NCBI GenBank assembly: GCA_934167465.1
Contig: CAKPKR010000001.1
Location: 287,030-351,029 of the forward strand
Length of the DNA: 64,000 nt
Source: an uncultured Bacilli bacterium
GTDB lineage: Bacteria; Bacillota_I; Bacilli_A; RF39; UBA660
Direction: 5' to 3'
Below the pieces are notes generated by a model, which was given only the letters and a program-made list of their open reading frames with translations, had not been told where the DNA came from and ran no database searches. A program made the position numbers and the translations under genes. Positions 61 to 48,202 of this stretch are shown here, one piece after another. Each line of letters opens with the position of its first letter. Position 1 is the stretch's first letter.

Positions 61-837
61 TTAAAATACATTTTCATTTATTGAATTTTCTAAATCAATT
101 ACAATTGGATTATTATTTTCATCAGGTGCCACTACCATTATATAATTTTCTTTTTCAGTAGTAATTTTATAAAATTTATATTTATAATATGGACGTAATG
201 TTGTTAATTCTTCAATTTCTTCGATTGTTTCATTATTATAAGTAAATAATTCATTTGGATCTATTTTATTATAATATTCTTCTATTACTGGATTAAAAAA
301 TCCACCACTTGAAGTTTCTATATTAGATATTTGTTTATTTTTTATAAATACAAAAATTGATTTTTCGATTTTTGATAAATTAGTTGACCCAGTCATTTCA
401 TTTAAAAATATACAAGTATCATTTGTTGTTTTACATTTATATGCAAAATCTAATTTATAAAGATATTCATCAACTATTTTTCCATAATATGTTATATTTG
501 TTAAATTTATAAATTCTATATCATCTAAATTCCAATTTTTATAAAAAATATCATTAAATACCGTTGAATTATATAAAGCATTTAACATTTTTTTTTCAAA
601 CAAACTATATTTTGATGAATCAAATTGTGGAAAACTTAATATATAATCTTCTTCTTTCTTATTAGTTGTTTCTTCCGATTTTTCGTTATTTATTTTATCA
701 TTATTGTTTTGTTTGATTTCATTATTATTGATATTTTTTTCATTATTCTGCGTTTTATATATTAAATAAATGCACGTTGATATATTAAATAAAAAAATAA
801 AAAGTATAGTAAAAATTAATATTTTGTCTTTTTTCAT
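61..837 (-). CDS. hypothetical membrane-anchored or secreted protein with an N-terminal signal anchor and an Asn/Lys/Glu-rich linker
   Basis: 258-aa ORF. Hydrophobic N-terminus ILIFTILFIFLFNISTCIYLI followed by a low-complexity linker. Divergent from the XRE gene at 933. Confidence 0.5.
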   Translation of the reverse strand: MKKDKILIFTILFIFLFNISTCIYLIYKTQNNEKNINNNEIKQNNNDKINNEKSEETTNKKEEDYILSFPQFDSSKYSLFEKKMLNALYNSTVFNDIFYKNWNLDDIEFINLTNITYYGKIVDEYLYKLDFAYKCKTTNDTCIFLNEMTGSTNLSKIEKSIFVFIKNKQISNIETSSGGFFNPVIEEYYNKIDPNELFTYNNETIEEIEELTTLRPYYKYKFYKITTEKENYIMVVAPDENNNPIVIDLENSINENVF

Positions 838-867
838 ATATTTAATCTATCTTTCTTTTTTAATTAT

Positions 868-907
868 AAAACAATATGTTTTAAAAATCAATGTAACATA
901 TTGTTTT
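868..907. promoter_or_regulatory. perfect 13-bp inverted repeat AAAACAATATGTT-N14-AACATATTGTTTT, a candidate operator
   Basis: Read directly. It lies in the divergent intergenic region between the start codons at 837(-) and 933(+). Confidence 0.5.
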
Positions 908-932
908 AATTTAGAATTATATTGGTGATTAT

Positions 933-1133
933 ATGTATTTAAAAATTAAAGACTTTAGAGAAGATCATGATTTATCACAAAAAGAAGTTGCTAAAATATT
1001 AAATATTTCTCAAGTTACTTATTCTTATTATGAAATAGGAAAAAGAAATATACCATTAGACTTATTAATAAAATTAGCTGATTACTATAATGTTACTTTA
1101 GATTATATAGTAGGTAGATTTAAAAAAGATTGA
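933..1133 (+). CDS. XRE-family helix-turn-helix transcriptional regulator (66 aa)
   Basis: HTH signature SQKEVAKILNISQVTYSYYEIGKRNIP. Paralog of the ORF at 4957 (shared EDHDL..K.A.IL.I.Q..YS.YE...R..PLDLLIKLADYYNV..DYIV). TGA stop at 1131-1133. Confidence 0.75.
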   Translation: MYLKIKDFREDHDLSQKEVAKILNISQVTYSYYEIGKRNIPLDLLIKLADYYNVTLDYIVGRFKKD

Positions 1134-1135
1134 AC

Positions 1136-1837
1136 TTACAATCTTTTTTTCTTTATTTCACTATATTTTCTAGGATATTTTTTGTTATCTTTCAATTTTT
1201 CAAACAATAAAATTGTTCTTGTACTTCCTTCAATTGGTAATTTAAATTCTGATTTTTTTATCAATCTAACATTTAATTCATTAATAGCATTATCTATTTC
1301 TTTTAGTTCTTCATTCATATTAGCTTTTAATGGAATAAAATATCCATTTATTTTAGTTAAAGGTATAGCATATTCTAATAAAATTGAAGTATGTGCGACA
1401 GCTCTTGCTGTTGTAACATCAAATTTATTTCTATTTTTTAATGCATAATCCTCAGCTCTAGAATGAATTACTTCAATATTATTAAGGCTTAATTTATCAA
1501 TTACTACTTTTAAAAATTCTATTCTTTTATTTAAAGAATCTAATAAGGTAATTTTTAAGTTAGGAAATACTATTTTTAAAACTAATCCTGGAAAACCAGC
1601 ACCTGTTCCTATATCACATAATGAATTAATGCTATTTAAATCTATTACTTTAGCAAGAGTTAAAGAATCATAGAAATGTTTTAAATATACTTCCTCATAT
1701 TCAGTAATGCCAGTTAAATTCATTACCTTATTGTATTCAATTAATAAATTATAATATTCATTTAATTGATCTAATTGATTTTGTGTTAATGATACATTAA
1801 TTAATTTTAGTTCCTCAATAAATCTATTTTGATTCAT
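1136..1837 (-). CDS. rsmG: 16S rRNA m7G527 methyltransferase RsmG (GidB)
   Basis: 233 aa with the SAM-binding motif DIGTGAGFPG. Classic position downstream of mnmG. Confidence 0.9.
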   Translation of the reverse strand: MNQNRFIEELKLINVSLTQNQLDQLNEYYNLLIEYNKVMNLTGITEYEEVYLKHFYDSLTLAKVIDLNSINSLCDIGTGAGFPGLVLKIVFPNLKITLLDSLNKRIEFLKVVIDKLSLNNIEVIHSRAEDYALKNRNKFDVTTARAVAHTSILLEYAIPLTKINGYFIPLKANMNEELKEIDNAINELNVRLIKKSEFKLPIEGSTRTILLFEKLKDNKKYPRKYSEIKKKRL

Positions 1838-3722
1838 TTTTATACTCCTTTTTTAAATATACCATTAAAATAGAAATATCTGCTGGATTTACTCCACTTA
1901 TTCTTAAAGCTTGACCAATTGAAGTAGGCATTACTTCTTTTAATTTTTGTCTTGCTTCGCTAGCAATATTTTTAATGTTATCATAATTAATATCTTCAGG
2001 TATTTTTTTATTTTCTAATTTCATCATTTTTTCGGCTTCTTTAATAGCTTTATTTATATACCCTTCATATTTAATGTTAATCTCTACTTCTTCTTCTATT
2101 TCTTTGTCATATTTTATATCAATTAATTTTTCTTTTCTTAAATTTTCCAATGTTATTTCTGGTCTTTTTAAAAAGTTATAAGCACTTATACCATCTTTCA
2201 AAGGAGTAGTATTTAAATTATTAAATTTTTCTAAATTATCTTTGGAAGGAGTAATCTTAATATTTTGAAGTTCTTTAGTCATTTTTTCAATATTATTTAT
2301 TTTATTTAAATATCTATTATATTGTTCTTCATTAATTAATCCTACTTCATATCCATGTTTTCTTAATCTCAAATCAGCATTATCGTGTCTTAATAATAAA
2401 CGATATTCTGCTCTTGAAGTTAATAATCTATATGGGTCTCTTATTCCTTTTGTAACTAAATCATCAATCAATACACCTATATATGCTTCATTACGGCCTA
2501 ATATTAACGGTTCTTTTTGTTCTAATTTTAAAACAGCATTTATACCGGCAATCAAACCTTGGCAAGCTGCTTCTTCATAGCCACTTGTTCCATTAATTTG
2601 TCCAGCTGTAAATAAATTTTCTATTAGTTTTGTTTCTAATGATTGTTTTAATTGTGTTGGATATATTGAATCATATTCAATTGCATATGCATATTTTAAT
2701 ATTTTTGCGTGTTCTAATCCTGGTAAACTATGAACCATTTTTTCTTGAATATCATATGGCATACTTGTTGAAAATCCTTGTAAATAAATAGTATTACCAT
2801 AAGTTGGATCATCACTTATTCTGCTTTCAGGTTCTAAAAATAATTGATGTCTTTCCTTATCGGCAAATCTTACAACTTTATCTTCAATTGATGGACAATA
2901 TCTTGGTCCGATTCCTTTAATATCGTCTAATCCACCATACATACTTGATTTATTTAAATTTTCTCTTATTATTTTATGAGTTTCTTCAGTTGTATAAGTT
3001 AAATGACAAGGAACTTGTTCTTCTATTTTATATAAAGGTTTTAAATCAAAGGAAAAAGTTAAATATTCAGGATCACCTAATTCTATTCGTGTTTTTGAAA
3101 AATCAATTGTATTTATATCTATTCTTTGAGGTGTACCTGTTTTAAGTCTTTTTATTTTAAAACCTAATTTTTCTAAATTTTCACTTAAATAATTAGATGG
3201 TTTTTCACCATGTGGACCTTGTCTTGTTCTAGTACTTCCAACTAGTATATCAGCTTTTAAATATGTTCCAGTTGTTAAAATAACTGCATCACCATATATT
3301 TTTGTATCATCTTCTAAAATAACACCAATTACTTTGTTATTTTCTACGATCAAGTTTTCAACTATACCTTCTTTTATTTCTAAATTTTCTTGTTGTTTCA
3401 TAATTTCTAACATTTTTTTAGGATATGTTATTTTATCACCTTGAGCTCTTAATGATTTAATAGCTGGACCTTTTTTATTATTAAGCATTTTTATTTGAAT
3501 ATGAGTCATATCTGCAGTTTTTCCCATTTGTCCGCCTAAAGCATCTATTTCTCTTACAACTATTCCTTTTGCTGAACCTCCTATTGAAGGATTACAAGGC
3601 ATATCGGCAATATTTTTAATATTTCCCGTTACCAATAATGTTTTATGTCCTTTACGAGAAGCTGCTAAAGAAGCTTCACATCCGGCATGTCCGCCACCAA
3701 CTACAATGATTTCATATTTCAT
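1824..3722 (-). CDS. mnmG: tRNA uridine 5-carboxymethylaminomethyl modification enzyme MnmG (GidA)
   Basis: FAD motif IIVVGGGHAGCEA and a long conserved body. The ORF track starts at GTG 3731. I prefer the ATG at 3722 (MKYEIIVVGGG) because the RBS AAAGGAAG sits 8 nt upstream. Confidence 0.95.
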   Translation of the reverse strand: MKYEIIVVGGGHAGCEASLAASRKGHKTLLVTGNIKNIADMPCNPSIGGSAKGIVVREIDALGGQMGKTADMTHIQIKMLNNKKGPAIKSLRAQGDKITYPKKMLEIMKQQENLEIKEGIVENLIVENNKVIGVILEDDTKIYGDAVILTTGTYLKADILVGSTRTRQGPHGEKPSNYLSENLEKLGFKIKRLKTGTPQRIDINTIDFSKTRIELGDPEYLTFSFDLKPLYKIEEQVPCHLTYTTEETHKIIRENLNKSSMYGGLDDIKGIGPRYCPSIEDKVVRFADKERHQLFLEPESRISDDPTYGNTIYLQGFSTSMPYDIQEKMVHSLPGLEHAKILKYAYAIEYDSIYPTQLKQSLETKLIENLFTAGQINGTSGYEEAACQGLIAGINAVLKLEQKEPLILGRNEAYIGVLIDDLVTKGIRDPYRLLTSRAEYRLLLRHDNADLRLRKHGYEVGLINEEQYNRYLNKINNIEKMTKELQNIKITPSKDNLEKFNNLNTTPLKDGISAYNFLKRPEITLENLRKEKLIDIKYDKEIEEEVEINIKYEGYINKAIKEAEKMMKLENKKIPEDINYDNIKNIASEARQKLKEVMPTSIGQALRISGVNPADISILMVYLKKEYKNESK

Positions 3723-3800
3723 ATAAAACACTTCCTTTTTAACTTTTCATATTATACTATTTTTTTTGTTTTTATACAATAATTACATATAATTAATTGA

Positions 3801-3833
3801 TAAAAAAAATAACAAGATTATTTTGTTATTTTT
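3801..3833 (-). terminator. rho-independent terminator hairpin AATAACAA-gattatt-TTGTTATT with a flanking A/T run
   Basis: Read directly downstream of the minus-strand gene ending at 3836. Confidence 0.4.
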
Positions 3834-3835
3834 AA

Positions 3836-4864
3836 TTAATTTCCTAAAAAAATAATTCTTGCAAATCCATCTCCAATGTTTGAATATTCTATTATTGATT
3901 TATTACTAACATTTGTACTATTTATTGTTTTAGTATTTTCTTCAGCAGATTCTTTACAATTATAGCAATATATTTTTTTATTTTTTAATAAGTTATTTCC
4001 AATATAACTTGAACCTCCACCAGCAGAATAAGGGGTACAACCACCTCCATAAAGTCCACCTCCACCTCCTACTCCAGCACAAGTAGCACCTTGACCAAAG
4101 GAACCAATTGAATGATAAATTGGATTTGTATTTCCTCTACTATCATAAAAATTTCCTCCAGATGTTTGTGATGCACCAATTCCATATAATGTTACTGTAC
4201 CTTCCTTATAAGAATCGCCATTTACACCTTGAATACCTCCACCATTACCACCAGAACAAGCCATAATTGCTGCATTAGATCCACCTCCGCCTCCACCTGA
4301 TGCAACAATATAAATTGATGATAATTTTTTGCTTAATGTGGAAAGTAAGCCGGATTCTGATGCTATATGAGTTGCTCCTCCACCTGATGCAGTTAGTACA
4401 TGGCCATCATTGTCAATTTTAGCATCTCCACCACCATTATATCCACCTTTAAAAGCTTTATGTTCACCATTTCCTGAACCAGAACCTCCAACATTTATAT
4501 ATAATTTACTACCTTTTTGTAAAGTAATTTCTCCTGTTGCATATGCTCCATATCCACCTGTTTTAGATGAAGTAGACGCACCGCCTTGAGCACCCCATAC
4601 ATCTAATCTGTATTTACCATTATATGGAACTATAAATATTTGTTCAGTACCTGTGTATAAAAAATCATAAACTACTGAAAATTGATTATTTTTTTTATTA
4701 TATAATTCATTTAAAGCATCATTTACGCTCATACTACTTCCGTCACTGGCATTATATACTACATCACTTGCTTTATATATTGTTGCGGCATAGACTCCTA
4801 GCCCAGTAAATATTATTCCACATATTACTATTAAAAATATTCTACTTTTTATTATTTTTTTCAT
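3836..4864 (-). CDS. secreted glycine-rich protein (Gly_rich-like domain). The N-terminal 55 aa are shared with the paralog at 5183-5734.
   Basis: N-terminal signal anchor MKKIIKSRIFLIVICGIIFTGLGVYA. Body includes VWGAQGGAS...YINVGGSGSGNG...IYIVASGGGGGGS...GGGGGLYGGGC. The ORF-track start at 4891 adds 9 aa. I prefer the ATG at 4864 because of the RBS AGGTGA, identity with the paralog start, and a consensus promoter upstream. Confidence 0.8.
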   Translation of the reverse strand: MKKIIKSRIFLIVICGIIFTGLGVYAATIYKASDVVYNASDGSSMSVNDALNELYNKKNNQFSVVYDFLYTGTEQIFIVPYNGKYRLDVWGAQGGASTSSKTGGYGAYATGEITLQKGSKLYINVGGSGSGNGEHKAFKGGYNGGGDAKIDNDGHVLTASGGGATHIASESGLLSTLSKKLSSIYIVASGGGGGGSNAAIMACSGGNGGGIQGVNGDSYKEGTVTLYGIGASQTSGGNFYDSRGNTNPIYHSIGSFGQGATCAGVGGGGGLYGGGCTPYSAGGGSSYIGNNLLKNKKIYCYNCKESAEENTKTINSTNVSNKSIIEYSNIGDGFARIIFLGN

Positions 4865-4880
4865 TTGATCACCTATTTCA

Positions 4881-4928
4881 ATTATATACATTCAAATAAA
4901 TGTATGTCAAGTACATTTGTTTGAATGT
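4881..4928 (-). promoter_or_regulatory. consensus sigma-A promoter: -35 TTGACA at 4905-4910, 18-nt spacer, -10 TATAAT at 4881-4886. The spacer is the palindrome TACATTCAAATAAATGTA. A second copy of the motif (TACATTTGTTTGAATGT) lies at 4912-4928.
   Basis: Read on the minus strand as TTGACAtacatttatttgaatgtaTATAATtgaaatAGGTGAtcaaATG. Confidence 0.6.
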
Positions 4929-4956
4929 GTGTTAATTTAATGTTAATGGTGATTTT

Positions 4957-5172
4957 ATGGAAATAAAAAGAATAAAAGATTTAAGAGAAGATCATGATTT
5001 ATTACAAAAAGATATAGCAAATATACTAGAAATTACTCAGCAACAATATAGTTTATATGAATTAAATATAAGAGATATGCCTTTAGATTTATTAATTAAA
5101 TTAGCTGATTATTATAATGTATCAATTGATTATATTGTGAATAGGACAAATAATAAACAAATAAAAAAATAA
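4957..5172 (+). CDS. XRE-family HTH transcriptional regulator (71 aa), paralog of 933-1133
   Basis: HTH LQKDIANILEITQQQYSLYELNIRDMP with RBS GGTGA. Divergent from the Gly-rich gene and convergent with the paralog at 5183. Confidence 0.75.
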   Translation: MEIKRIKDLREDHDLLQKDIANILEITQQQYSLYELNIRDMPLDLLIKLADYYNVSIDYIVNRTNNKQIKK

Positions 5173-5182
5173 GTTTTTAAAC

Positions 5183-5734
5183 TTATTCTATTTTATAAAT
5201 AGCAGCTACGGCTCTACCATAAAATGTTCCATATTCCATATATTCTGAAACAGTTATCGTTGACGAATTTTCCACAATACAAATATATATTTCAGCAGCA
5301 CTACTTCCTCTACCAGCTTTGTGTGAATTTGTCTCATTATAACCATTTCCTTCATGCCAAACTGATATTCTATCTATTTTTGTTATTGAACTACAACCTG
5401 TTACATTTGATAAAGCACTATATTCTGTAGTTGCTGCTGAAAATAATATAAAGTATTTTCCTTGTTCTAATGTTTTAGTTAAAAATACTTTATCTGCAGA
5501 ACCTGATATACCTGTTGAAGCTGTTGCAATCTGTGTTAAATTAAAATTTGTTAACTTATCTCTATTATTATATAATTCATTCAAGGCATCATTTACATTC
5601 ATACTACTTCCATCACTGGCATTATATACTACATCACTTGCCTTATATATTGTTGTGGCATATACTCCTAGCCCAGTAAATATTATTCCACATATTACTA
5701 TTAAAAATATTCTACTTTTTATTATTTTTTTCAT
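5183..5734 (-). CDS. secreted protein paralog of 3836-4864. It shares the N-terminal 55-aa module but has an unrelated 125-aa C-terminal domain.
   Basis: The first ~165 nt are nearly identical to the 5' end of 3836-4864 (MKKIIKSRIFLIVICGIIFTGLGVYA(A/T)TIYKASDVVYNASDGSSM(S/N)VNDALNELYN), after which the two diverge. Confidence 0.7.
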   Translation of the reverse strand: MKKIIKSRIFLIVICGIIFTGLGVYATTIYKASDVVYNASDGSSMNVNDALNELYNNRDKLTNFNLTQIATASTGISGSADKVFLTKTLEQGKYFILFSAATTEYSALSNVTGCSSITKIDRISVWHEGNGYNETNSHKAGRGSSAAEIYICIVENSSTITVSEYMEYGTFYGRAVAAIYKIE

Positions 5735-5757
5735 CTAGATCCCTACCTTCTATCAAT

Positions 5758-5788
5758 ATCTTACCCCCCCCCCAGACAAAAAAGTCAA
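5758..5788 (-). promoter_or_regulatory. promoter for 5183-5734: -35 TTGACT (5783-5788), 19-nt spacer containing a G10 homopolymer (C-run on the + strand at 5764-5773), -10 TAAGAT (5758-5763)
   Basis: Minus-strand read: TTGACTtttttgtctGGGGGGGGGGTAAGATattgatagaAGGTAGGGatctagATG. The homopolymer was counted as 7+3 C's across the line break. Confidence 0.55.
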
Positions 5789-5796
5789 GAAAAATT

Positions 5797-5826
5797 TCAA
5801 AAAAAAAATAAGTTTTTTAACTTATT
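5797..5826 (-). terminator. mnmE terminator hairpin AATAAGTT-tttt-AACTTATT followed by a U10 run on the minus strand
   Basis: The stop codon of mnmE lies inside the hairpin. The A10 run at 5797-5806 reads as a U-run on the minus strand. Confidence 0.55.
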
Positions 5827-7168
5827 TTCCTAAACAAAATCTACTAAATAATTCATCTATCAATTCTTCTTCATAGGTATCACCTATTATTTCACCTAAT
5901 AAATTCCAAATATTTTTAATATCTAATTCAATCATATCAATAGGCATATTATTATTGATATTTTTTTCTAATTCATTTATTTGTTCATTTACTTTTTTTA
6001 AAATTGCTACACTTCTAGCACTTGTTAAATAAGTCATATCTTCTTTTTCAATTTGTTCTAAATTAAATATTTTTTTAATGGTATTCTTTAATTCATCTAT
6101 TCCTTCATTATTTTTTGTACTAATATAAATAACATTATTTAATAAATTAGTGTTTAATTTTTTTTCTAAATCTATTTTATTAACAATTATAATATGATTT
6201 TTATTTTCTATTTTTTCTAATAATTCTAATTCTTCTTTTGTTATTTCTTCATTGTTATTTAAAACAAATAAGATTAAATCAGAATTATCAATTAGTTCTA
6301 AACTTTTATCAACACCAATTTTTTCAACAATATTATCAGTATCTCTAATACCAGCTGTATCAATTATATTTAGTAAAATCCCATCAATATTTACTGTTCC
6401 TTCTACTATATCCCTTGTTGTTCCTTCAATATCAGTTACTATTGCTTTGTCTTCTTCTAATAAAGTATTAAGTAAACTACTTTTTCCAACATTTGGTTTA
6501 CCTATTATTGATGTTTTAATTCCTTCTTTAATTATTTTACCATTATTTGATTTTTTTAATATATCTTCGATTTTTTCTTTTATATTTTTTATTTTTTCTT
6601 GTAATAGTGGAATAGTTACTTCTTCTACATCATCATATTCAGGATAGTCAATATTAACATTGATGTTTGCTAAAACTTGAACTAAATCTTCTCTTAAATT
6701 TCTAATTAAATTAGATACTTTTCCACTTAATTGATTAATTGCTAAATCACGAGCTTTATCAGTTTTAGCCTCAATTAAATCCATTATTCCTTCTGCTTCT
6801 TCTAAATCAATTCTTCCATTTAAAAAAGCTCTTTTAGTAAATTCACCAGGTTCTGCTAAACGGCAACCTTTCATTAATAATAATTCTAAAATTTTATTTG
6901 TTGTACTGATTCCGCCGTGACAGTTAATTTCTACAATATCTTCAGTTGTAAATGTTTTAGGTGCTAACATAACTGATACTAAAACTTCATCAATTATTTC
7001 GTTATTTTCTTTAATATAACCGTAATGAATAGTATGTGATGCTACTTTAGTTAAATCTTTTGTAAATATTTTACTAACAATTTTAGTTGCTTCTTCACCA
7101 CTAACTCTTATAATTGAAATAGCTCCTACTCCTAAAGCTGTAGATATTGCTGCTATTGTATCATTCAT
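5822..7168 (-). CDS. mnmE: tRNA modification GTPase MnmE (TrmE)
   Basis: G-domain motifs GKPNVGKSSLLN and DTAG, and a C-terminal CLGK. I prefer the start at 7168 (MNDTIAAIST, RBS AAAGGTG) over the ORF-track start at 7198. Confidence 0.9.
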   Translation of the reverse strand: MNDTIAAISTALGVGAISIIRVSGEEATKIVSKIFTKDLTKVASHTIHYGYIKENNEIIDEVLVSVMLAPKTFTTEDIVEINCHGGISTTNKILELLLMKGCRLAEPGEFTKRAFLNGRIDLEEAEGIMDLIEAKTDKARDLAINQLSGKVSNLIRNLREDLVQVLANINVNIDYPEYDDVEEVTIPLLQEKIKNIKEKIEDILKKSNNGKIIKEGIKTSIIGKPNVGKSSLLNTLLEEDKAIVTDIEGTTRDIVEGTVNIDGILLNIIDTAGIRDTDNIVEKIGVDKSLELIDNSDLILFVLNNNEEITKEELELLEKIENKNHIIIVNKIDLEKKLNTNLLNNVIYISTKNNEGIDELKNTIKKIFNLEQIEKEDMTYLTSARSVAILKKVNEQINELEKNINNNMPIDMIELDIKNIWNLLGEIIGDTYEEELIDELFSRFCLGK

Positions 7169-13107: not shown

Positions 13108-13566
13108 GTGGAAAACTATGAAATAAATAATTCAACATTAGCAGTTATTGCTTTAAATGAGAAACAATCCAAAATAATTGAATTAGATGAAATTTATATT
13201 GTGGAAAAATCTGTATTTGAAATAATTGATCATAGTTGTAAATTTTTTGGAAGTTCATATTTAGGAAGACATGAGGGAACAAAAATGATAACTGGAATAA
13301 AATATAAAACACCTATATTAATTGAAGAAAGTCATAATATTATATTTTTTCCTACATGTTCTTCTAAAATGAATAATTGTATGTGGATATCTTTAAATAA
13401 TATTAAAAATTATTCAAAATATAAAAGAATTTCTAAAATTATATTTAAAAATGATTATGAATTAATTCTTAATATTTCATATGGTTCATTAGAAAATCAA
13501 ATATTAAGATCAACTTTATTAGATAGTACACTTAGAAATCATAAAAAAAATATAATGAATAAGTAA
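13108..13566 (+). CDS. comK: ComK-family competence transcription factor homolog
   Basis: GTG start with RBS GGAGGG. Aligns by eye to B. subtilis ComK motifs: NSTLAVIAL / KIIELDEIYIV / EIIDHSCKFFGSSYLGRHEGT / KTPILIEESHNIIFFPTCSS / NCMWISLNNIK / ISYGSLENQILR. Confidence 0.65.
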   Translation: MENYEINNSTLAVIALNEKQSKIIELDEIYIVEKSVFEIIDHSCKFFGSSYLGRHEGTKMITGIKYKTPILIEESHNIIFFPTCSSKMNNCMWISLNNIKNYSKYKRISKIIFKNDYELILNISYGSLENQILRSTLLDSTLRNHKKNIMNK

Positions 13567-19407: not shown

Positions 19408-19451
19408 TGATAAAAAACTTGCTAAAAAAAATAAAATATTATATATTATTA

Positions 19452-19530
19452 ATGACACAACATTTATATTCGAACCAGGTCAGATGAGGAATCAAGCAGC
19501 CTTAAGATTCACTAAATGTGTGTGTCTTTT
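19452..19530 (+). ncRNA. ffs: small signal-recognition-particle RNA (4.5S/ffs-like hairpin). Boundaries are approximate.
   Basis: Domain IV core CCAGGUCAG...GGAAUCAAGCAGCC matches the conserved 4.5S motif. The flanks GACACAACAUUUA / UAAAUGUGUGUGUC form the long helix. Promoter TTGCTA-17-TATATT upstream and a U7 run downstream. Confidence 0.55.
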
Positions 19531-19549
19531 TTTATAATTGGTGATGAAA

Positions 19550-31974: not shown

Positions 31975-32197
31975 TTACATATTGAAAAGTTATGAAGGAA
32001 AGAGAAATAATTGAATTTTTAAAGAGAACTAGTGGTTGGTGTAAACTAGTAAAATTTATTATTTTAAATGGTTCTGGAATTGTTTAAGTGAATAATTAGC
32101 TTATACCGTAAATATGCGTTAAATATAAGAGGTAGATTTATCTATGAATTAAGGTGGTACCACGTGAACTACGTCCTTATTAGGATGTAGTTTTTTT
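31975..32197 (+). promoter_or_regulatory. T-box riboswitch leader (probably Met-specific) with terminator
   Basis: T-box motif AATTAAGGTGGTACCACG at 32147-32164 (consensus AATTAGGGTGGTACCGCG). Terminator CTACGTCCT-tatt-AGGATGTAG followed by T7 at 32169-32197. Stem I candidate at ~31990-32060 with AUGA at 31991-31994. Confidence 0.6.
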
Positions 32198-48122: not shown

Positions 48123-48202
48123 TTTCATTGCTTTTTATGTTATAATATAAGAGCATTAAATTTCTATGACTAATGTTAGTCATGGCGGAAGGAGATAGTA
48201 AT

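Follow-up and report, generated by a model that had tools for sequence, protein, structure and literature searches.

This study concerns a 2.1-kb islet of three genes in a 64,000-nucleotide (nt) stretch of contig CAKPKR010000001.1 from an uncultured Bacilli bacterium; the whole 64-kb stretch, which covers the replication-origin region and has a guanine plus cytosine (GC) content of 24.6%, is referred to as the window. The islet is located between the mnmE and mnmG genes, and consists of two genes encoding predicted exported proteins with a near-identical leader but different C-terminal domains (genes A and B), and a gene encoding a regulator of the XRE family (Table 1). We interpret genes A and B as members of a large, probably phase-variable family of surface proteins in uncultured gut Bacilli. 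The original prediction had placed three genes between mnmE (5822) and mnmG (3722), and all its coordinates hold. The XRE gene and gene A are divergent and 92 nt apart. Directly before the mnmG promoter region, the sequence downstream of gene A can be read as a putative terminator, which was not called by a scan that requires GC. Other loci are referred to by handles starting with L, and other genes by handles starting with P.

Table 1. Features of the mnmE-mnmG islet and, below these, other features of the window (aa, amino acids; ORF, open reading frame; HTH, helix-turn-helix; SRP, signal recognition particle).
Feature	Position	Strand	Remarks
mnmE	5822..7168	-	448 aa; upstream boundary of islet; ORF; TrmE_N/MnmE_helical Pfam marks on L001 orthologue
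Gene B -35 hexamer TTGACT	5783..5788	-	Sequence reading
G10 homopolymer in gene B -35/-10 spacer	5764..5773	-	Putative slipped-strand switch
Gene B -10 hexamer TAAGAT	5758..5763	-	23 nt before ATG; sequence reading
Gene B	5183..5734	-	183 aa; leader and unannotated beta-sandwich head; ORF, model
Shared leader of gene B, codons 1-57	5564..5734	-	Signal aa 1-26 ending in VYA, then TTIYKASDVVYNASDGSSMNVNDALNELYN; 162/171 nt identical to 4694-4864
Hypervariable segment, C-terminal half of gene B	5250..5400	-	Alignment of window and L001
XRE-family HTH gene	4957..5172	+	71 aa; divergent from gene A, convergent with gene B
Putative operator 1, ACATTCAAACAAATGT	4913..4928	-	Abuts -35 upstream; half-sites kept, central 6 nt changed in L041
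Gene A promoter TTGACA-18-TATAAT	4881..4910	-	12/12 consensus; promoter scan; identical in L041
Putative operator 2, ACATTTATTTGAATGT	4888-4903	-	Fills gene A spacer
Gene A	3836..4864	-	342 aa; leader (4694-4864) and ALK/LTK-type glycine-rich domain
Putative terminator	3795..3835	-	AT-rich hairpin and T-run 3' of gene A; sequence reading
mnmG	1824..3722	-	Downstream boundary of islet; ATG at 3722; GIDA Pfam marks on orthologues
xre2 (XRE paralogue), second islet	933-1133	+	68% identical to first XRE
258-aa membrane/secreted protein, second islet	61-837	-	Divergent from xre2
dnaA, dnaN, recF, gyrB, gyrA	from ~10.4 kb	+	ORFs in window
rnpA, yidC, jag, HD-domain gene, mnmE, mnmG, rsmG		-	ORFs in window
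SRP RNA	19444-19540		Routine RNA feature
T-box leader	31983-32181		Routine RNA feature
L31 ribosomal-protein leader	48164-48194		Routine RNA feature
tRNA-His	63475-63550		Routine RNA feature

A shared leader and its family of heads

Counted from the ATG, 162 of the first 171 nt are identical between genes A and B, and over the first 165 nt, for which near-identity had been predicted, the alignment gives 157/165 (95%). The 56 codons of the leader differ by five synonymous and two non-synonymous changes, and the similarity breaks off abruptly after approximately nt 171-180, which places the breakpoint in the nucleotide alignment at codons 57-60. A 47-nt probe for the module found exactly two sites in the 64 kb, corresponding to the two leaders, where shuffled sequences gave an expectation of 0, and the window contains no leader copy beyond those of genes A and B. 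The 5' untranslated regions had also been proposed to be related, but this proved weak, as the alignment covers no more than the -35 region and a TAGG core. Within a single genome, paralogous leaders usually share only ~56-86% nucleotide identity, and a genome-wide homogenisation of leaders was rejected on these grounds; the 95% identity of genes A and B thus points to a recent local duplication or gene conversion.

The encoded module starts with MKKIIKSRIFLIVICGIIFTGLGVYA, which by inspection is an n-h-c signal sequence, with MKKIIKSR as n-region, a hydrophobic core of 16 residues, and V-Y-A as c-region before A/T; the aligned leaders show no variation at Y25 and A26. After the signal the two proteins continue with (A/T)TIYKASDVVYNASDGSSM(S/N)VNDALNELYN. 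The AlphaFold2 models of both proteins contain one continuous helix at residues 3-28, and within the module a hairpin (residues 36-46) and a helix (residues 47-56), all with modest confidence (predicted local distance difference test, pLDDT, 50-65 for the hairpin and helix). Searches with the leader and the gene B head against Pfam, NCBIfam, PHROG and PADLOC gave only weak matches to Wzz, which are due to the transmembrane segment. Two other types of export were considered and rejected. A lipoprotein reading fails as the leader family has no conserved lipobox Cys: cysteines are not conserved and are never preceded by a lipobox, and the consensus at the leader end is (G/S)x(Y)A, with A/T-T-x-Y coming next. 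For a prepilin reading of genes A and B, there was no PF07963 match on either protein, and no GFTLxE motif in the family.

With regard to the C-terminal parts, the glycine-rich domain that had been proposed for gene A was recovered with PF12810 (ALK_LTK_GRD) over the whole model (E 3.5e-34, 119.3 bits with a cut-off of 24.5, model positions 7-243 of 243). The gene A model had a pLDDT of 91.9, and its 21 best Foldseek matches were all glycine-rich domain (GRD) chains of ALK or LTK (probability 1.00, E 8.6e-10 to 1.5e-6), with the human ALK GRD and the LTK TG domain at the top, albeit with template modelling scores of only 0.27-0.45, meaning that the cores align while the superposition of the whole chains is not close. 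Hence both the hidden Markov model and the predicted fold make the gene A head a full-length member of this domain family. The next Foldseek match after the ALK/LTK chains was the fibre of cyanophage Pam3; in addition, the GRD matched PHROGs 5811, 1589 and 7388 (function not assigned), and C. difficile phage proteins encoded beside tail-fibre genes. For the C-terminal part of gene B there was no match in Pfam, NCBIfam or PDB sequences, and its model is a beta-sandwich resembling collagen-binding, GOLD and TNF/C1q domains, carbohydrate-binding modules and the heads of phage receptor-binding proteins. A PDB sequence search with both proteins gave nothing significant.

A database search with gene B returned 99 relatives of ~110-320 aa, most of which resemble it over no more than the first ~57 aa (60-88% identity), beyond which the sequences diverge. 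This was extended with a leader profile, which at E ≤ 1e-3 had 1276 matches among the representatives of 1.84 billion clusters (50% identity), including 124 at E ≤ 1e-10; in the best 150 of the 1276 matches the leader match starts within the first ~16 residues of the protein, and the new representatives found with the profile have a median length of 174 aa. Grouping of the members with a head of at least 60 aa (BLASTP, E ≤ 1e-5) gave at least 91 mutually unrelated C-terminal head groups among 207 members, which supports the predicted combination of a constant N-terminal module with swappable C-termini. Eight Pfam families were recognised on these 91 head groups, being H_lectin (two members), the GRD, BclA_C, F5/8-type-C, NedA-like galactose-binding, Ephrin_rec_like, DUF4183 and a match to poxvirus A33R; 83/91 groups were without annotation, and Pfam detected no toxin families in the 91 head representatives. 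Judged by these matches, the recognisable heads are predicted binding domains, mostly carbohydrate-binding or C1q/TNF-like.

The GRD is not restricted to the leader family. There are at least 956 GRD homologues, and other uncultured Bacilli carry the domain behind a wide variety of N-terminal modules, among them prepilin-type N-termini (GFTLIE, PF07963), which fits a displayed, ligand-binding role. In animals, the ALK/LTK GRD is part of a receptor tyrosine kinase which binds ALKAL cytokines; the bacterial GRD of uncultured Bacilli differs from the animal receptor kinase in being fused to many export or anchor modules, and these predicted fusions suggest that the clade has reused it widely as a displayed head. 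Examples of fusions without the leader are P0112, P0126, P0129, P0135, P0145, P0146, P0150 and P0184, and by eye some of the GRD N-termini loosely recall TasA/SipW-type signals.

Among 185,579 species genomes, the leader was found only in uncultured Bacilli or Bacillota from gut or rumen metagenomes with a GC content of 21-31%, with at least nine copies in one genome and at least five in another, and it was absent from 2.9 million IMG/VR viral contigs. In several genomes the family genes are intact and scattered among housekeeping genes, either single or paired, and the arrangement of the islet was seen only in related uncultured Bacilli, not in unrelated genera. There is no model for the leader family in Pfam or NCBIfam, none of the sources in the searched tables gives it a descriptive name, and literature searches on phase variation in RF39 and on poly-G in gut metagenome-assembled genomes gave no description of it.

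Several further observations were made on individual family members. One bin labelled 'uncultured Muribaculaceae' (CAZXOH01: L006, L008-L011, L015-L017, L041) carries the family, but its contigs have 21-28% GC and the Bacilli-type mnmE/XRE/GRD/mnmG arrangement, and the label is therefore probably wrong. In a roe-deer rumen genome (JAFUTV01, L020 2681-6890), five distant members with a common orientation are found in a region of ~4.2 kb, three being back to back, with leaders 29-40% identical to the window leader, ordinary ribosome-binding sites and no poly-G, which suggests that some lineages express the family in an operon-like manner and not via individual switches. Family genes beside parB are preceded by hisS-aspS instead of rsmG in L042 (4243-6334) and L043 (9674-12393), and the genes following P0036 vary between contigs; taken together, family genes tend toward rearrangement junctions. 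Finally, contigs ending inside a leader or at the poly-G tract were common (L008, L010, L013, L015-L017, L028, L038-L040), and the family is thus likely to be under-counted and mis-joined in short-read assemblies.

Promoters of genes A and B and poly-G tracts in the family

The original prediction proposed that the two genes are under different types of control, a homopolymer versus a repressor and its operator, and two such layouts are indeed present: a poly-G spacer of a type found across the family upstream of gene B, versus a consensus promoter covered by palindromes beside a divergent XRE gene for gene A. The gene B promoter reads TTGACT-TTTTTGTCT-G10-TAAGAT-23 nt-ATG, with a spacer of 19 nt made up of nine other nucleotides and the G10 tract. 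This tract is the sole run of seven or more G or C residues in the window, where ~0.00025 runs of ten are expected by chance.

The same arrangement recurs upstream of family genes of several uncultured genomes, with the consensus TTGAC(A/T) or TTGATT-N8-9-Gn-TATGAT/TATAAT-22-24 nt-ATG, and at least 30 family promoters have the layout of a TTGAC-type -35, a G tract and a -10. In 305 kb of fetched DNA there were 32 runs of eight or more G or C residues, of which 31 are within 140 nt upstream of a leader gene and on the same strand, and the remaining run is located 167 nt upstream of a leader gene. Spacer lengths were taken from 32 promoter matches, several of which represent the same gene from different samples: 19 nt was found in 20 matches, 20 nt in five, 18 nt in three, 17 nt in two, and 21 nt in one, with a single 12-nt spacer being a mis-parse of the regular expression. 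The modal tract length across the family is G10. The length differs between samples for several single genes: P0070, which was available from ten samples with otherwise identical flanks, has G9 in one, G10 in four, G11 in four and G12 in one, P0036 has G10 in one sample and G8 (resulting in a 17-nt spacer) in another, and P0093 has G9 and G10. Some paralogues have a single A within the tract, an interruption which would be expected in 'locked' derivatives, and one of these gives a spacer of 17 nt (L014). Following the 17±1-nt rule for sigma-A promoters, G10 would correspond to a weak or off state and G8-G9 to an on state.

The promoter of gene A has no G tract but matches the consensus at all positions, and its two palindromes both have the structure ACATT-N6-AATGT and together form a 20-pair inverted repeat centred on the -35. 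The XRE protein was identified with PF01381 HTH_3 (E 4.2e-11, 43 bits with a cut-off of 23) and PHROG 8, transcriptional regulator (E 1e-18), and a match with an RstR-like repressor scored 46.6 bits, below the cut-off. In L041, the region between mnmE and mnmG contains an XRE gene, both palindromes and a leader-GRD gene encoding a protein 77% identical to that of gene A; the ACATT/AATGT half-sites are kept, and the central 6 nt of one operator are changed. In L041, L036 and L037, the XRE gene is placed and oriented with respect to the gene A orthologue as it is in the window, and in the distant genome L022 two divergent XRE genes are located upstream of a leader gene without poly-G. The promoter scan gave no convincing promoter assignable to the XRE gene itself. 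From this arrangement, the product of the divergent XRE gene probably acts as a repressor of gene A, which would thus be conditionally expressed.

Variability of the mnmE-mnmG site and other features of the window

The genes present between mnmE and mnmG differ between related contigs, and the site has at least three states. Genes B, XRE and A are all present in the window, L036 and L037, while L001-L003 have gene B only, with 1327 nt (3836-5162) replaced by 224 unrelated nt, and L041 has only the XRE gene and gene A at this site. As L001 represents a strain otherwise ~98% identical to the window, the prediction of a variable islet stands insofar as its content differs between strains of ~98% identity, but it is not wholly variable, since XRE and gene A occupy the same site in L041. 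Variation also extends into gene B. Compared with L001, the window is 96-100% identical from mnmE across the promoter and leader to about the middle of gene B (upstream of ~5450), but identity is 52-68% at 5250-5400 (L001 8300-8480), and returns to 97% after ~5200. The segment represents the allelic replacement of a block with sharp borders in the head of gene B, within one species, its flanks being 98-100% identical.

Combinations of leaders, heads and promoters also differ between family members. The same leader allele (98% nt identity) precedes different C-termini in P0069 and P0070, and conversely the same head is found behind different leaders in P0028 and P0068, and in P0002 and gene B. 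In L038-L040 the gene A orthologue has a 5' untranslated region of the poly-G type, and the first base is shared by all three of these contigs, at 25 nt before the ATG. L004 (979 nt) and L005 (877 nt), two contigs which derive from independent samples, correspond to window positions 4847-5745, and run from the gene A promoter through the leader, the gene B body and XRE to the gene A promoter again, with a period of exactly 870 nt, which is the leader-to-leader distance. A circle or tandem repeat of this kind would be expected if the two leaders recombined within their first 71 identical nt, and the contigs are suggestive of such an event; alternatively, they may represent a cycle in the assembly graph.

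A second islet is located between rsmG and parB (window 61-1133, L001 11488-13064, L036 9732-11647), and contains the XRE paralogue xre2 and a gene for a 258-aa membrane or secreted protein. The intergenic region of xre2 has its own inverted repeat, which is different from that of gene A (AACAATATGTT / AACATATTGTT). In L036 and L037 the 258-aa gene is broken into ORFs of 89 and 95 aa. In related contigs the 258-aa gene is followed by a further leader-family gene, in a position just past the left end of the window, and this gene differs between strains, encoding 135 aa with a G10 promoter in L001 and 243 aa in L036. Elsewhere in the window, a ComK-family gene is located between dnaN and recF (13108-13566; PF06338 on the L001 orthologue), and this competence regulator may be relevant, given the recombinational exchange of surface-gene cassettes in this organism.

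Interpretation, alternatives and significance

The explanation which we favour, and which we hold to be reasonably probable on the basis of sequence comparison, is that genes A and B belong to a multigene family of exported binding proteins that is subject to phase variation, and in which interchangeable heads are joined to a constant leader and docking module. On the best-supported reading of the two genes, gene B would be a standard member controlled by poly-G, and gene A a member that has come under the control of a repressor. Each family member would consist of three parts: a Sec-type signal sequence ending in the conserved VYA, a conserved mature module of ~30 residues modelled as hairpin and helix (consensus TYKASDVVYNASDGTSMNVNDALNELY), and an interchangeable C-terminal head, which would be a beta-rich binding domain. 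The conserved module would probably dock or assemble all heads onto one common putative surface acceptor. Most family genes, gene B included, would be transcribed from a promoter with poly-G in the -35/-10 spacer, at which slipped-strand mispairing during replication may change tract and spacer length, and thereby switch each gene on or off at random in the population; with G10 and its 19-nt spacer, gene B would probably be in a low or off state. For gene A, the stochastic promoter would have been exchanged for a consensus promoter covered by two putative palindromic operators, making its expression conditional via the XRE protein. Recombination within or just after the leader may move heads between promoters and loci, and would result in the strain differences at the mnmE-mnmG site. 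The likely benefit would be varied surface binding and antigenicity in the gut, for instance versus immunoglobulin A (IgA), phages or changing glycan ligands. A more far-reaching version, which we put forward tentatively and consider rather doubtful, is that of a combinatorial 'expression-site' system, in which hundreds of lectin heads would share one 56-residue leader with a 30-residue docking module and a common acceptor, leader recombination would shuttle them between poly-G and XRE promoters, and L004 and L005 would be the footprints of this process.

Several points weigh against the phase-variable family as outlined above. A G tract is present at only 37 of the 62 leader genes for which sufficient upstream sequence was available (these genes being non-independent), and the poly-G switch is thus common in the family, but not universal. 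The tract of gene B itself is G10 in 6/6 assemblies and its own length variation was not seen, meaning that its variability is extrapolated from the paralogues. The varying tract lengths come from consensus assemblies of Illumina reads, in which differences in poly-G may be sequencing or assembly artefacts, and the ON tract length follows only from the 17±1-nt spacing rule. Finally, cleavage of the signal sequence was judged by eye, and the N-terminus could instead be an uncleaved membrane anchor.

A first alternative, which we consider unlikely, is that the conserved module is an assembly element (donor strand or pilin-like), with the family members being fibre subunits or tip adhesins and the heads representing alternative tips; this is a refinement of the phase-variable family and is compatible with it. 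The conservation of the module far beyond the needs of secretion alone speaks for such a role, as do the GRD homologues of other uncultured Bacilli in which prepilin-type or fibre-like N-termini replace the leader. There is however no G/FTLxE prepilin motif or conserved Glu5, no pilus, sortase or SipW genes adjoin the loci examined, and the module is modelled, at low confidence, as hairpin and helix instead of an extended strand.

The other three alternatives are less well supported than the phase-variable family. Conventional regulation, with the G tract as a fixed promoter element (a regulator site or structural spacer) and the length differences being noise, is improbable in our view: the constant G10 of gene B, the modal length of G10 in the family, and the error-prone nature of poly-G on the Illumina platform with contigs often breaking there are all in its favour, but tracts range from G8 to G12 at single genes in independent assemblies with otherwise identical flanks, several paralogues have the single-A interruptions of locked derivatives, and in a genome of 25% GC such tracts are found only at the promoter position of leader genes. 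To our knowledge, homopolymer runs as long as these have proved intrinsically unstable in all organisms in which they were studied. The proteins could also be polymorphic secreted toxins or bacteriocin-like effectors, with a constant export leader and interchangeable killing domains for bacterial competition, and the constant N-terminus, variable C-termini and recombination at the junction do resemble polymorphic toxin systems, with 83/91 unannotated head groups leaving room for toxic activity. Against this, the recognisable heads all have lectin or binding folds, there are no small immunity-like genes downstream (the neighbours being mnmG for gene A, XRE for gene B, ileS for P0070, and parB), neither protein has a match to a PADLOC model, no dedicated export or processing gene is located nearby, and phase variation via the promoter spacer is typical of surface antigens and not of toxins, making this reading very improbable. 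Thus of the original description as variable surface antigens or polymorphic effectors, the former fits the family and the latter does not. Finally, that the islet is a prophage or phage-like remnant, consisting of a phage repressor and decayed tail-fibre or receptor-binding genes without a cellular role, is highly improbable despite the phage matches of the GRD, the Pam3 fibre-like model and the resemblance of the XRE protein to phage repressors, as neither the 2.1 kb nor its surroundings contain further phage genes, an integrase or att-like repeats, both proteins have putative N-terminal signal sequences, which virion proteins generally lack, the family genes are intact and scattered among housekeeping genes, the leader is missing from the viral contigs, and the GRD is the only head with phage relatives.

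Comparison with known systems places the phase-variable family closest to mycoplasma surface proteins in its layout. According to PMC10502178 (citing Citti & Wise 1995 and Persson 2002), each vlp promoter of M. hyorhinis contains a poly-A tract, and the Vmm system of M. mycoides has a dinucleotide repeat in the promoter spacer. As with Vlp and Vmm, we find a multigene family of putative surface proteins with a conserved 5' end, a divergent remainder and a promoter for each gene, and where Vlp and Vmm are switched ON/OFF by indels in a simple promoter repeat, the spacers here contain a G tract differing in length between samples. There is no sequence homology with Vlp or Vmm, and Pfam and NCBIfam searches gave no similarity of the leader family to any named family, including Vlp, Vsp and Vpma. 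Further differences from Vlp are the use of poly-G versus poly-A, the absence of a lipobox Cys, the swapping of globular heads instead of tandem repeats, the conserved module of ~30 residues after the signal, the apparent rewiring of one member (gene A) to XRE, and the uncultured gut Bacilli as hosts. In N. meningitidis, the poly-G tract of porA and the poly-C tract of opc are located between the -35 and -10 and set the spacer length, and hence the level of transcription; these are single genes of a Gram-negative pathogen, whereas we describe a family of more than 1000 sequence clusters with interchangeable heads. The combination of a conserved N-terminal attachment domain with exchangeable C-terminal heads is also known from phage receptor-binding proteins and tail fibres, such as those of lactococcal phages, but the leader proteins differ from these in having putative Sec-type signals, in their scattered chromosomal genes with individual promoters, and in their absence from IMG/VR viral contigs. 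In a gut commensal, replication slippage switches sortase-dependent pilus genes ON/OFF in Bifidobacterium breve (PMC9187656). Unlike in the B. breve pilus switch, the repeats described here are located in the promoter spacers of a large family. The B. breve repeat is reportedly a poly-G located inside the coding sequence, and reportedly governs a single pilus cluster.

Among pathogens, Mycoplasma and Neisseria are well-known examples of organisms with phase-variable surface families; for gut commensals, the known cases mainly involve invertible promoters in Bacteroides. The family described here is very large, occurs in uncultured gut Bacilli of low GC content, and appears to use poly-G in the promoter for the same job, with lectin-like heads; its interest derives mainly from its size, its hosts and this lectin-like repertoire. 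If true, this would open a way to study the attachment of these uncultivated organisms to the host, IgA and phages, or their evasion of these, and would supply a collection of small secreted binding domains, the majority without a known fold. The G-tract length per gene would then be a metagenomic marker of surface-state dynamics in vivo. Similarly, the bacterial ALK-type glycine-rich domains are placed in a predicted context which suggests ligand or receptor binding at the cell surface.

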